Shown piece after piece: positions 16,184 through 20,132 of a stretch of 35,063 bases of DNA. The stretch is taken from contig JAZDMC010000052.1 of the NCBI GenBank assembly GCA_043801325.1, positions 1-35,063 of the forward strand. Direction: 5' to 3'. The notes beneath the pieces are model-generated. The model did no database searches. It worked only from the letters and a program-made list of their open reading frames with translations, and was not told the DNA's origin. The position numbers were made by a program, and so were the translations under genes. Numbering within the stretch: position 1 is the first letter of the stretch; the number at the start of each line of letters is the position of its first letter. The stretch comes from Candidatus Woesearchaeota archaeon (GTDB taxonomy: Archaea > Nanobdellota > Nanobdellia > Woesearchaeales > GW2011-AR4).

Positions 16184-16515
16184 TAAGTTAACTAATAGGG
16201 ATCTTTTTTTAAATATTACTACAAAAACAATAACGTTTAAAAAATCCTCAAAGAATCTCCTTAATAAAGTTAGTTACAATTTTTTTTGGTGTGGTTTAAT
16301 GGAGCATAGTCTTGAAGAAAGAGTTTTACTGCCTGAAAAAGCAGGAGCAGGGGGATGATATCAATGAATTCAGGAATGGATTGAAGGAGTATTCTAATGG
16401 ATTAAAGAAAGTAGGTTATGTAATACGCCATGGAACTAAAATATTGTCATCCCATGGAAAATGATGTGGATTATGCAACAGAATTATTGACAAGATTAGG
16501 AGTTGTTGTTAAGAA

Positions 16516-16860
16516 TTACGCTTGATTTTGTTTACAATAAATATACGCAACCTCACCTTTAGGTGATTTGTATTGGCTTTCTGCTCTCAGTAAACTGATA
16601 TTGTCCCTTTCCATATTTCTTGCAGCGCGTATTAAATCTTTTTCGAATATTTCCATATCACCTTCTTTTTTGAGATCATATATATGTAAGAAGTAGTGAT
16701 TAGTGTTTATTTGTGATGTTAACTTAATGCCCATTTCTGTTGTTGTCTCTCGAAATCCATTAACAATAGAATCTTCTAATTTATCTTTGATATCTGTTTT
16801 CAGAATTTCTGTTCCTATTTGTCCAAGTTCGCTTAATGCTGCTTTTTCAGGCATTTTCAA
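16516..16860 (-). CDS. Hypothetical protein
   Basis: 114-aa ORF downstream of the integrase on the same strand. No recognisable motif. Confidence 0.45.
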   Translation of the reverse strand: MKMPEKAALSELGQIGTEILKTDIKDKLEDSIVNGFRETTTEMGIKLTSQINTNHYFLHIYDLKKEGDMEIFEKDLIRAARNMERDNISLLRAESQYKSPKGEVAYIYCKQNQA

Positions 16861-16935
16861 CTAGGAAGTGATGAAGAAGTTTTAATGATTTTGGTTCAAA
16901 AAATAAATTAGAGGTTACTGATTTTAACTCAAAGA

Positions 16936-17556
16936 TTACCCAAATACATCCCCTACTTTCTTCTTTAATTCATCATCCATTTCAGAGATGCTTTTAGTTC
17001 CATATAAGTCCATAGTTGTTTTGTAGGAAAGATGTCCTAAGACCTTTTGGACTACTTCTAGGCTTAACCCGCGATCTTTGAGGATTCTGGCACAGCTATG
17101 CCTTAAGATATGGGGGTTGATGTTTTTAAGCTCAGGAATAGGGTTATGTAGATGAGCCATATGGCCTGCTTTGGCTACAATTCTATTGATTTCAGTAGGT
17201 GATATATAGCCTTTTTTGTTAAGGTTAGAAACAGCAGGGAAAAGATAGCCTTGTTTTGGGCTGTTTAGGACATACCTAAGGTATACCTTAAGGTCTTCAA
17301 GAAGTTGGTCTGAAAATATTGTTGCTAAACGTTCAATGTTCTTTTTGCCAAGAATGTTGATTTTTCTAGTTTCAATGTTAAGGTCTTCTATTTTGATTTT
17401 GGCTAATTCAAAACGTCTTAAGCCGCAATATGCCAGGAGTTTGATAATTAGTTTATCCCTTAGCTTTTCAGCGCTTTTGATTAAAAGCTTGATTTGATCT
17501 TCTGTTAAATGGAACTGGCTTCTTGTGTGGCCTTTTTTCTTTGGTGGTGGATTCAT
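16936..17556 (-). CDS. Tyrosine recombinase/integrase (short form)
   Basis: The catalytic signature appears in order: Arg in AYCGLRRFEL, H-x-x-R in HILRHSCA, and His plus the Tyr nucleophile in LGHLSYKTTMDLY. At 206 aa it is essentially the catalytic domain with a minimal N-terminal arm. Confidence 0.9.
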   Translation of the reverse strand: MNPPPKKKGHTRSQFHLTEDQIKLLIKSAEKLRDKLIIKLLAYCGLRRFELAKIKIEDLNIETRKINILGKKNIERLATIFSDQLLEDLKVYLRYVLNSPKQGYLFPAVSNLNKKGYISPTEINRIVAKAGHMAHLHNPIPELKNINPHILRHSCARILKDRGLSLEVVQKVLGHLSYKTTMDLYGTKSISEMDDELKKKVGDVFG

Positions 17557-17569
17557 ACAAGGTAAATAT

Positions 17570-17592
17570 GTAACAGATTATTTAAATGTTAC
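17570..17592 (-). promoter_or_regulatory. Inverted repeat GTAACA-N11-TGTTAC enclosing a TTTAAA box upstream of the integrase
   Basis: The perfect 6-bp arms are at 17570-17575 and 17587-17592. The spacer GATTATTTAAA carries a TATA-like box 25-30 nt from the integrase ATG (17556). TGTTACGTTTT recurs exactly at 17639-17649. Confidence 0.4.
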
Positions 17593-17720
17593 GTTTTTAG
17601 TATGTTTTGTGGGGTATTTTGTAATGATTTGTATAAAGTGTTACGTTTTAAAGAATGAGGTGTTTTGAAGGCGTTTAAGGATAGGAAAATACTTGGAGGT
17701 CTTTTTGTATAAGGTGTAGG

Positions 17721-18272
17721 TTAAATAAACGCAGGTGCTTGTTGTAAAACTGGAATGGTTTTTGGAGAACGTTCTTTAACCTTTTTACGTTTACCACCAT
17801 TATCCCCCTTTTCCTTAACAGGGCCTGCTGAAAGAATGTAAAGCAATTCTTTTGTTGAACCTTTATAATCCCAATCTAGCCTAATAAGTCTTGTAACAAG
17901 ATAGCATCCATCTTTTTGAGTAGGGGGGTGGTAATTTTGTTTTATCCTGTTTACTAACTCTTCACTAAGATTGACATCTGCAATAAGCTCGCCAAGTACC
18001 TGTTCACCTTGATATGATTTACGACCTGTAACAACAGTTTCTAATCTAGAGGAGTATAAAGAGGGGGAAGGATAACTTCTTATTTCACCACTTCTTGCAT
18101 CTTCTTGTGCGTATCCCATTAAAATTTGATGAGTAGGAATAAAGAGAGAATCCATAGCCACAAGGCTCAAACAAAGAAGACCAGGTGTACGCTGTTCTTC
18201 TGTTCTTACATGATACGCTTCCATAACATAGTACAGGATATAGGCAGAATTTAAATATTTAATTAATTGCAC
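17721..18272 (-). CDS. Hypothetical protein
   Basis: 183-aa ORF. A likely later start is MEAYHVRT. The C-terminus is basic (KGDNGGKRKKVKER). No recognisable motif. Confidence 0.4.
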   Translation of the reverse strand: MQLIKYLNSAYILYYVMEAYHVRTEEQRTPGLLCLSLVAMDSLFIPTHQILMGYAQEDARSGEIRSYPSPSLYSSRLETVVTGRKSYQGEQVLGELIADVNLSEELVNRIKQNYHPPTQKDGCYLVTRLIRLDWDYKGSTKELLYILSAGPVKEKGDNGGKRKKVKERSPKTIPVLQQAPAFI

Positions 18273-18396
18273 ATTAATAAATTATTTTCCATATTGAAAT
18301 TAATCTATTAAAAACGCTTAAAAGATTTAAGCAATAACTAAAATGTATTAGAATAATTAAGCTTAAAAGTTTTAATAAAAAATTAAAAGTTTTAAG

Positions 18397-18963
18397 CTAA
18401 AAATTTACCAGTTCTTTTTGAGCTGTGTCTATACACAGTATGTTTTCTTTAGCCTGCAAGCGCTTGAACTCTGGATTCAGCTTAATATATGGGAGGTTGT
18501 TGATGTATTTCTTCATCAATGGAATCCCTTTTTCCACTAGTCTTGCAATGTACTCATTTACAACATAACCTGGAAAATCTGTTTTTCTGATTATATCTCC
18601 ATAAGATACAAGGCCTTTTTCATCCTCTAATGCATATATGACAAGGAAAACATATTGCTCTTTTTTTGTTAATGGCTTTATGTCAAAGCTCTTTTCAACT
18701 GCATTAAAGGCGCTATATTGTTGGAGGAATATTTCTATTGACTCAATGCGCTCTGCAAGCTTTTCCGCTTTGTCATTAATCTCGTTAATGCACTCGTAGC
18801 TTGTTTGTATTTCACTTGTGTTTTCATTCACAGCGTCTAAATGCTCGTCTAATTCACTTTTAATGGATTTTAATGCTTCTTTGAGCTCCAAATCATAGTC
18901 TTTTGGTTTTTTTGAAAAATAGCGCTTCCTTTGCTTAAAAAACTCGTCAAAAATCATTACCAC
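18397..18963 (-). CDS. Coiled-coil plus winged-helix-like DNA-binding protein
   Basis: N-terminal heptad-like helix (LELKEALKSIKSELDEHLDAVNEN...AEKLAERIESIEIF). The C-terminal segment LTKKEQYVFLVIYALEDEKGLVSYGDIIRKTDFPGYVVNEYIARLVEKGIPL resembles MarR/TrmB-type wHTH domains. Confidence 0.55.
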   Translation of the reverse strand: MVMIFDEFFKQRKRYFSKKPKDYDLELKEALKSIKSELDEHLDAVNENTSEIQTSYECINEINDKAEKLAERIESIEIFLQQYSAFNAVEKSFDIKPLTKKEQYVFLVIYALEDEKGLVSYGDIIRKTDFPGYVVNEYIARLVEKGIPLMKKYINNLPYIKLNPEFKRLQAKENILCIDTAQKELVNF

Positions 18964-19033
18964 CCCTGCTTTTTGTAGATAAGGGGCTTGTTTAAATAGT
19001 TTTATATTGTAGAAAATATTAATTTAAACATAG

Positions 19034-19672
19034 TTATTGCTCTTTTAATTGCTTATAGAGATAGTATTTTTGCTTGCCTTGTTTAACTGTTCCTATGCCT
19101 TCCATGGCCTCTATTTCATCTAAAAGCCTGTAGAATGAGCTTTTTGAGCATAAGCCCTGGTCATATACAATCATGTCTTTTAATTGCAAGGCTCCTATTT
19201 GGGTGTATTTCCTTATGTATGCAAGTATGAGGTTTTTAACATATTCTTTTGAATTTCTTGTTACTCTTTTTACTACTTTTTCCCTTATTGTGGCTTTTTT
19301 TTGCTCTTCCAAGTGTGCAAGGCGCTGCTCTATTTCATATATTCCTGAATGTGTTTGAGGCATGTAAGACTCACTTCTCTTTAAGCTATCCACTTTCTCA
19401 TTAAGGGCCTTTATACGCTCAGTAAGGCTGTCAAATGAGTAGTATGTGTCTACTATTTTCCTGATATCTTCTGGCCTTTTTGGGATGTATGACAATTCTA
19501 ATTGGAGCTGCTTGATCTGGTTCTGCTGCTCTAGATTCTTTTGGTAAAGGTAGTTAAGCCACTGGAAGAGTTTTTGCGTGTCATTTTTTACATTAGAAAA
19601 GGATTTGGCTAAAAGGCTGTGCATCTGTGAAAGTTTTCTTTCAGTGCTTGATTGTATCCTGATGCCAAACAT
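19034..19672 (-). CDS. Coiled-coil plus winged-helix-like DNA-binding protein
   Basis: Long N-terminal coiled coil (NLEQQNQIKQLQLEL...IKALNEKVDSLKR...RLAHLEEQKK). C-terminal wHTH-like segment (ILAYIRKYTQIGALQLKDMIVYDQGLCSKSSFYRLLDEIEAMEGIGTV). It is the first gene downstream of the iteron array. Confidence 0.55.
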   Translation of the reverse strand: MFGIRIQSSTERKLSQMHSLLAKSFSNVKNDTQKLFQWLNYLYQKNLEQQNQIKQLQLELSYIPKRPEDIRKIVDTYYSFDSLTERIKALNEKVDSLKRSESYMPQTHSGIYEIEQRLAHLEEQKKATIREKVVKRVTRNSKEYVKNLILAYIRKYTQIGALQLKDMIVYDQGLCSKSSFYRLLDEIEAMEGIGTVKQGKQKYYLYKQLKEQ

Positions 19673-19697
19673 AATTTAATCAATAAACTGTATTTTA

Positions 19698-19705
19698 TTT
19701 AAATA
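19698..19705 (-). promoter_or_regulatory. TATA-like box (TTTAAATA) 26-33 nt upstream of ORF 19034-19672
   Basis: The 11-mer TTTAAATATTT occurs at 19698-19708 and again at 19772-19782, in the gap between iteron blocks 1 and 2. Confidence 0.35.
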
Positions 19706-19715
19706 TTTCGGTTTT

Positions 19716-19885
19716 TGGGAATATATTGGGAATATGCTGGGATGAGATTGGGAATACAGTAAGACGAAAAGTTTAAATATTTGGGAATAAATTGGGATTA
19801 TATTGGGAATATAATGGGACTGATATGGGACTGAGACTACAAGTTTACCGTCGAGAAAGGGCCTGGGAATGAAGTGGGAATGAGA
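19716..19885 (+). repeat. Array of eleven 11-bp-phased TGGGA(A/C)T iterons (4+5+2)
   Basis: TGGGA starts at 19716, 19727, 19738, 19749, 19782, 19793, 19804, 19815, 19826, 19864 and 19875. Spacings are 11, 11, 11, 33, 11, 11, 11, 11, 38, 11. All copies share one orientation. An 11-bp period cannot be a coding repeat, and all frames contain stops. Confidence 0.9.
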
Positions 19886-20132
19886 CTAAGGTGATAATTA
19901 AAAAATGCACAAAAACCAAATCCAATGATAAAGAACAAATCATTAAAATTTTAATAAAAAAATAAATTGAATAAAAAATATTTTGAAAAAATGATAACCC
20001 AAAAATCAGATCAAAAAATGAAGGTTTTTAAAATAATGGTTGTTAGTATGCTTTTGGAGCTGGGAATATGGCTCAAAGTGAGGCCTGTGAAGGGCTTTAA
20101 AAGTGGGTTTTAGAGGGCTGGAAAAGGCAAAA

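Follow-up and report, generated by a model that had tools for sequence, protein, structure and literature searches.

Does a tyrosine recombinase gene lying among orphan genes in a Woesearchaeota genome mark an integrated element, or does it belong to the chromosome that carries it? The locus that raises this question lies on a 35,063-bp contig (C24), the whole of which is the window analysed here, from a metagenome-assembled genome (MAG) of 787 kb in 84 contigs that is 77% complete. A first-pass annotation had presented five genes and a repeat array, enclosed by two housekeeping genes, as a single block that was either a very small integrated element or a domesticated remnant. Our analysis points in another direction: the recombinase, which we refer to as INT, and a conserved 81-bp element directly upstream of it very probably form a fixed chromosomal recombination module, whose job has about an even prospect of being dimer resolution at the replication terminus. 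For the region as a whole, the explanation that we favour on balance is a composite of this resident, N-terminally truncated Xer/dif-like module, a separate module made of two further genes (A and B) and the array, and genome-specific orphan open-reading frames (ORFans) alongside an acquired IMPDH-like gene. The recombinase gene, its upstream element and its conserved neighbour lie as follows (throughout, relatives are given by G numbers and their loci by L numbers):

16936-17556, minus strand: INT, a 206-aa Xer-family tyrosine recombinase with the catalytic domain only (PF00589)
17568-17648, minus strand: the conserved 81-bp element, directly upstream of INT, with two dyads
12794-13504, plus strand: a PAC2-family gene, the conserved left anchor and the real conserved neighbour of INT

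A Xer-family recombinase reduced to its catalytic domain

The 206-aa recombinase with a full catalytic signature that the first pass described is well founded. INT matched PF00589 at 1.8e-28 (99.9 bits, curated cut-off 27.1), and its R-K-HxxR-H-Y hexad (R47/48, K71/72, H149, R152, H175 and Y185) is invariant in five orthologues and aligns with the XerA motifs. The best solved relatives were P. abyssi XerA (4a8e, 5e-22), followed by T. acidophilum XerA (5hxy) and XerD. Residues 16-199 of INT align to residues 104-275 of 4a8e, with only ~15 residues before the catalytic domain; as the alignment begins at XerA residue 104, the entire N-terminal core-binding domain is absent from INT. A core-binding domain encoded by a separate gene was also considered and rejected, the small recurring ORFs beside INT (c12, c23) being opposite-strand readings of the conserved element and clusters c8 and c17 being membrane or secreted proteins.

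In a tree built from the recombinases of 40 relatives, the INT clade (“SHORT”) has as its sister, with support 100/99, another short clade (“short2”, 212-221 aa); the two share a long branch, and these short forms stand apart from the ~270-aa forms. Full-length XerA-like genes of ~270 aa take the same A-linked locus in other genomes, whilst a further full-length clade occupies another locus in most genomes. In the genus to which the window belongs, SHORT takes the slot in G000, G003 and G004, short2 in G005 and G012, and a divergent full-length form in G007. In one SHORT-bearing genome another recombinase gene, of 272 aa, follows ~1.3 kb downstream of INT (L037 6771-7589).

Synteny and age of the recombinase gene

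One genome per species was scanned for INT, giving 43 loci in 41 species. The gene was found in at least 41 further Woesearchaeota species at 72-89% identity (53-60% for PAC2), and it was adjacent or near-adjacent to PAC2 in 33 of the 43 loci. The order PAC2, a variable stretch, INT, A, B, the array, METTL5 and RpoL recurs in a genome of the same genus (G004), in another genus (G014) and in another family (G037), the last with METTL5 missing from the locus and B inverted. Mean p-distances were 0.21 for INT, 0.31 for PAC2, 0.44 for METTL5 and 0.60 for A, and the INT distances correlate with those of the three other genes (Mantel r 0.44-0.64, p<=0.001). Synonymous divergence (dS) of INT is as saturated as that of the flanking genes at a nonsynonymous divergence (dN) of ~0.1-0.2, and codon identity at identical residues (0.39-0.60) is the same as in PAC2. 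Recent horizontal transfer, a candidate cause of the high INT identity, is ruled out by this saturation, and the identity therefore reflects constraint; INT and the 81-bp element are vertically inherited.

These results bear directly on a recent or decaying mobile element, such as a plasmid or provirus remnant, as the source of the block. An integrase-family gene adjoining orphan genes is what such an element would look like, and the alternation of SHORT, short2 and full-length recombinases among close relatives (genus g1) would also fit, but the synteny across families and the saturated dS do not. The composition of the block is host-like (GC content 0.338, genome median 0.342; tetranucleotide distance at the 86th percentile), and a search of 15800-20600 for direct and inverted repeats gave no significant flanking direct repeats, hence no att repeats. 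Scans with Pfam, PHROG and a tRNA search detected no Rep, capsid, ATPase or tRNA, as the first pass had also noted, and apart from the integrase no replication, structural or transfer gene had a Pfam or PHROG match. Only distant integrases, at <=40% identity, were returned by IMG/VR and INPHARED, and a viral or plasmid origin was dropped. Neither an empty site nor a non-syntenic position was encountered among the relatives, where the gene order is shared beyond the genus and beyond the family. Conservation of the block at the locus in distant relatives, host-like composition and missing att repeats are the very observations that the first pass had named as speaking against integration, and we regard a mobile element as highly improbable. 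Its very small integrated element, which would also have to share the dS of its flanks, has to be given up; in the domesticated remnant the idea of a resident recombinase comes near the truth, but the enzyme is a Xer-family chromosomal one with a site of its own rather than what is left of an element.

The 81-bp element and its dyads

The element upstream of INT aligns without gaps in 41 species at a mean pairwise identity of 0.79, against 0.375 in the adjacent 42 nt, and it is conserved despite the saturated synonymous divergence. Its consensus, ACGTAACACTTTATACARAAYGTKAC..AAAAWGTAAY..AAAACGTAACATTTAAATAATCTGTTACATTT, holds two GTAAC/GTTAC dyads that are 52 bp apart, or about five helical turns. 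The first dyad (unit 1) has the consensus arms ACGTAACACTT and GAATGTTACGT on either side of TATACA, an 11-6-11 arrangement that is the geometry of dif sites (PMC2958812, PMC8371274). In the window, unit 1 lies at about 17619-17646 with the centre TGTATA at 17630-35. We take its central hexamer to be the reverse complement of the E. coli dif centre. The second dyad (unit 2) reads GTAACA (17570-75)-N11-TGTTAC (17587-92) in the window and is placed around the B recognition element (BRE) and TATA box of INT, about 25-30 nt before the ATG.

Searched with nhmmer, the 43 loci and the whole genome yielded neither a further copy of the element nor one of unit 1 or unit 2; the element is single-copy in the 787-kb assembly (77% complete) and in each locus, and a regular-expression search for GTAAC-N11-15-GTTAC gave one occurrence in the 787 kb. 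The short2 genes have the same two-dyad layout, with the boxes GCAAC/GTTGC. Since the box sequence differs with the recombinase clade even though A and B are ~75-80% identical between the short2 genomes and the window's genome, the boxes track the recombinase, and this co-variation of site and enzyme is the strongest indirect evidence, suggesting from sequence comparison that the enzyme reads the boxes.

Full-length recombinases have upstream dyads as well. The XerA-like gene at the A-linked locus in G040 has a dif-like dyad, TTCGTATAATGAGTATTATACGCA, at -49, which matches the dif of T. kodakarensis, as quoted in PMC11840125, at 15 of 28 positions, and the full-length XerA-like paralogues at the other locus (L096, L087, L077, L082, L091) have a conserved palindrome, ATTAAGCGTAGTATTATTACGCTTAAT, at -85. 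With the other-locus paralogue carrying a palindrome of its own, Woesearchaeales seem to have two recombinase-plus-site modules per genome.

In the mechanism that we propose, recombinase protomers would bind the GTAAC/GTTAC dyads, unit 1 with its 11-6-11 spacing would be the crossover site, and crossover there would resolve chromosome dimers near the terminus, as in xerA/dif and xerS/difSL modules. Unit 2 might serve autoregulation, act as an accessory synapsis site, or both. The dyads could instead be operators and nothing else, with INT a domesticated, autoregulated DNA-binding or topology factor that has no role in recombination; the placement of unit 2 over the gene's own BRE/TATA, the loss of the core-binding domain and the presence of a second, full-length Xer paralogue would all suit such a factor. 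However, six catalytic residues that stay invariant across 41 species at saturated dS are hard to explain without catalysis, and unit 1 has the geometry of a crossover site, so that we consider this operator reading decidedly unlikely.

Inserts were also seen near these sites. A GC-richer insert of ~170 bp with the terminal inverted repeats cggctgtgccatcagcaaaatc...gattttgctgatggtc is present at L030 9700-9875 (G004) and L029 4850-4936 (G003), located between the A stop and conserved AT-rich promoter-like repeats, and resembles a miniature inverted-repeat transposable element (MITE) or a structured RNA. Similar hairpin-ended inserts upstream of short2 (L009, L008) split the dyads from the start codon in G005 and G012.

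Variable DNA around a fixed recombinase

Five minus-strand ORFs (o114, INT, o183, A and B) lie within 16.5-19.7 kb, and the four that accompany INT are present and co-oriented as first described. They do not make up one unit with the array, as had been assumed: INT with its site, A and B with the array, and the two ORFans differ in evolutionary distribution. The variable features of the window are:

14855-16183, minus strand: IMPDH-like gene, variable cargo
16330-16344 and 16839-16853: arms of a perfect inverted repeat of 15 nt, enclosing 494 bp in which o114 has its 5' end
16516-16860, minus strand: o114, an ORFan downstream of INT with no family match
17721-18272, minus strand: o183, an ORFan occupying the variable slot that separates the INT site from the 3' end of A

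The IMPDH-like gene had been taken as one of the two housekeeping genes bounding the block, a role that its distribution contradicts. It is absent from 24 of 24 same-family relatives, it is without the CBS pair, and its best match among the 40 relatives is 43% identical and belongs to another family. Its composition departs slightly from that of the host (GC content 0.40 vs 0.34, tetranucleotide distance at the 95th percentile) and is the most atypical of any piece. Missing in same-family relatives and compositionally the most atypical, the gene is cargo rather than an anchor, and its GC content indicates that it was probably acquired. Only the self match was recovered for o114 among 1.84 billion representatives and for o183 among 5.8 billion clusters; o183 is doubtful as a real gene. 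The slot between the INT element and the 3' end of A is empty of ORFs in G014 and G037 and holds ORFs unrelated to each other in G000, G004 and G003, and downstream of INT the cargo varies among loci, including an HNH nuclease, a ligase, membrane proteins and the IMPDH-like gene. Of two close relatives, L049 and L050, the latter has a 498-aa ORF inserted at a distance of one gene from the element. Variable DNA thus surrounds INT whilst INT itself is fixed, and the ORFans and the acquired IMPDH-like gene fill a plastic region.

The cargo immediately downstream of INT in other species suggests that genes of a selfish or defence type may build up here. An HNH endonuclease and/or a conserved protein of ~190-220 aa (c25) occurs downstream of INT at L047 8566-8940 and L068 8719-9060, and in L045, L052 and L054.

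Such variability would follow if the resident recombinase captured circular DNA at its upstream site, as a landing pad or integron-like platform. This would explain why unrelated ORFans, such as o114 and o183 in the window, sit beside INT in every genome, why slot and cargo differ between genomes, and why the L049/L050 pair is separated by an insertion. Yet no second or hybrid copy of the site bounds the variable segments in the 43 loci or the genome, the repeated sites of a cassette array are absent and the variable ORFs single, the L050 insertion lies one gene from the element and not at it, and plasticity is expected near a terminus anyway. We consider a landing pad unlikely.

A different use of the enzyme would be that of a FimB/FimE-like invertase that flips a nearby segment, with phase variation, for example, of o114. 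INT is of the right size (~200 aa, no N-terminal domain), the perfect 15-nt inverted repeat (local E 2.8e-4) surrounds the 5' end of o114 only 80 bp from INT, where inversion would cut o114 to 11 codons, and inverted arrangements are seen among the loci, of the INT segment with respect to PAC2 in 6 of 43 and of B in G037. However, the repeat does not resemble the GTAAC dyads in sequence, it occurs like o114 in the window's genome alone whereas INT and the element are kept in 41 species, and the conserved element, being single-copy, has no inverted partner with which to form a FimB/FimE-type pair. An invertase is accordingly improbable, and the 15-nt repeat could be a phase switch or a chance match. 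The possibility that 16184-16530 is a decayed copy of o114 was dropped, as the two have no similarity beyond the repeat.

A Cys-rich lipoprotein gene (window 13935-14363) is found at the same locus in G014 (L031 7187-7504) and G012 (L008 776-1105), and is therefore conserved backbone and not cargo. Orthologues of the METTL5-like gene (window 20103-20789) begin MAKSESSNR, which makes the ATG at 20133 the probable true start rather than the GTG at 20103. A search for RNA families gave zero Rfam matches in 16000-20300.

A separate module of A, B and a phased array

Upstream of INT and its slot lie two genes and an array of short boxes:

18397-18963, minus strand: protein A, 188 aa, a coiled coil and a MarR/PadR-like winged helix-turn-helix (HTH), a core gene of the order
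19034-19672, minus strand: protein B, 212 aa, mostly helical/coiled coil, with a conserved C-terminal HTH-like motif, QGLCSKSSFYRLL
19716-19880, plus strand: TGGGA(A/C)T array, eleven boxes with 11-bp phasing in a 4+5+2 arrangement, upstream of B

The AlphaFold2 model of protein A (predicted local distance difference test score, pLDDT, 79.5) shows a long helix and a winged HTH, and its Foldseek matches include MarR, MepR, ZitR and AspA. Protein A was found in 30 of 41 relatives, its identity dropping from 85% to ~30% with phylogenetic distance, and its homologues fill >170 protein clusters. The model of protein B (pLDDT 72.6) had no significant fold match, and its homologues, in 530 clusters, are all hypothetical proteins of Woesearchaeota or Nanoarchaeota. 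B adjoins A in G004, G014, G037, G040 and G012. The two had been credited with a shared architecture of coiled coil and winged HTH, which holds for A with its MarR-family matches; in B the winged HTH is weakly supported, and a sequence comparison of A with B detected no similarity, for which reason the idea that they are paralogues was abandoned.

The array reported by the first pass is real, with 8 occurrences of TGGGA-N6-TGGGA in the array region where 0.06 were expected, and it is unique in the genome. The same architecture is present in G004, G014 and a genome of family f17 (G040), and in degenerate form in G037. The first and second TGGGA clusters have a BRE/TATA-like box, AAAAGTTTAAATA (19768-19780), between them, and the second is separated from the third by a conserved motif resembling CCGTCGAG; G004, G014 and G040 have both features. 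Transcription of a short divergent RNA across the array (19770-19900) is possible.

We infer, as the most economical reading, that A, B or both may bind the phased boxes, for autoregulation or in a higher-order nucleoprotein structure. In other families A is located 27-253 kb from INT, so that the juxtaposition in the window's family is no evidence of a functional unit, and the proposal that A and B are obligatory partners of INT is weakened by this distance. A, B and the operator-like array are a separate, order-wide module, distinct from INT and its site.

Position on the chromosome

As the window's own genome is fragmented, the position of the module relative to the terminus was read from G041, G043 and G044. 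In G041, a closed 1.56-Mb single contig of the SHORT type, cdc6 (821 kb) and INT (44.6 kb) are separated by 0.496 of the circle. The cumulative AT skew of G041 has its minimum in the 40-50-kb bin that contains INT and its maximum near cdc6, whilst the GC-skew extremes fall ~55-70 kb off the two genes. The AT-skew curve (L108-L157) is a clean V with its extremes at cdc6 and the INT locus, and AT skew, as opposed to GC skew, may be the better replichore marker in Woesearchaeota. In G044 the GC skew changes sign across INT (+0.117 and -0.070 on its two sides), with a cumulative maximum ~20 kb from INT, and on the contig carrying cdc6 the cumulative GC-skew minimum coincides with that gene. A terminal position of the SHORT module, supported in two of the three genomes, is thus suggestive and not established.

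Several observations weigh against a terminus-associated Xer/dif-like module. G043 has only a change of slope in its skew near INT, and in G039, a closed genome of the full-length type, the locus lies away from the skew extremes. INT departs from the two-domain Xer architecture of core-binding plus catalytic domain, the former of which is, to our knowledge, present in every characterised Xer protein. The site spans 81 bp in two parts, where dif is a single 28-bp site, and the inner arm of unit 1 is degenerate in the window's own genome. The orientation of INT relative to PAC2 is reversed in six loci, and the occurrence of three recombinase types in one slot within one genus implies replacement events. 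Finally, the full-length XerA-like paralogue, present with its own dyad in most genomes, could be the true dimer resolvase.

A bolder version of the Xer/dif-like module can be put forward, in which Woesearchaeales possess an undescribed class of Xer enzymes that lack the core-binding domain and act on a bipartite 81-bp dif marking the terminus, its dyads spaced by five helical turns and one of them serving at the same time as the promoter of the gene, and in which this module, together with the A, B and array module that adjoins it in the window's family, could form a terminus-organising centre, acting as a domain boundary or as a roadblock for forks or SMC. For such a putative centre the TrmBL2/dif boundary of Thermococcus offers an analogue, and we see only a small chance that this larger picture is correct.

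We know of no experimental work on chromosome maintenance in DPANN archaea, the lineage to which Woesearchaeota belong. If the module works as proposed, a strongly conserved Xer-type enzyme that lacks the presumed DNA-clamping domain and uses an unusually long, rigidly spaced site would be a natural minimal system, from which one could learn how tyrosine recombinases are assembled and their directionality governed in the absence of FtsK. Should the association with the terminus hold, the element would serve as a marker for placing the terminus in fragmented Woesearchaeota MAGs. There is also a warning for annotation: an integrase accompanied by orphan genes in Woesearchaeota is not to be scored as a mobile element, and the same applies to the full-length Xer-like paralogues, each with its own upstream dyad.

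Comparison with known systems

The tyrosine recombinase beside variable genes is a feature that the INT locus has in common with archaeal integrative elements of the SSV and pNOB8 types and with IMEX. It differs from them in having no att duplication or element genes, in its host-like composition and saturated dS, and in being syntenic. The array recalls regulators that bind iterons or heptad arrays, and centromere proteins, such as omega of pSM19035 and AspA of pNOB8, where helically phased short repeats likewise lie upstream of the gene for a small DNA-binding protein, and the winged HTH of protein A superposes locally on AspA of pNOB8; in contrast to both, the module of A, B and the array is chromosomal and order-wide, with no partition ATPase nearby. 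FimB and FimE, at ~200 aa, consist essentially of the catalytic domain and depend on DNA architecture. INT, with its single-copy element, differs from them in lacking an inverted pair of cognate sites.

In streptococci and lactococci, XerS and difSL combine gene and atypical site in one module that is passed on as a whole and sits at the terminus (PMC5357621). The INT module resembles this pairing of a recombinase gene with an atypical site, but XerS is a 356-aa, FtsK-dependent protein with both domains, difSL is a single 31-bp site, and the lineages are phylogenetically unrelated. Some archaea, haloarchaea included, are known to have modules of xerA and dif and dif-like sites that precede xerA operons (PMC5357621, PMC11840125, PMC2958812). 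INT is shorter than archaeal XerA (206 vs ~280 aa) and lacks its N-terminal core-binding domain, its site, which differs from the T. kodakarensis dif (PMC11840125), has GTAAC boxes and two dyads within 81 bp, and a second full-length Xer-like paralogue coexists with it. The likeness to archaeal XerA/dif nevertheless extends to a catalytic domain closest to that of XerA, one recombinase with a single-copy dyad site beside its gene, the 11-6-11 geometry of the unit 1 consensus and the terminus-type skew in G041 and G044.

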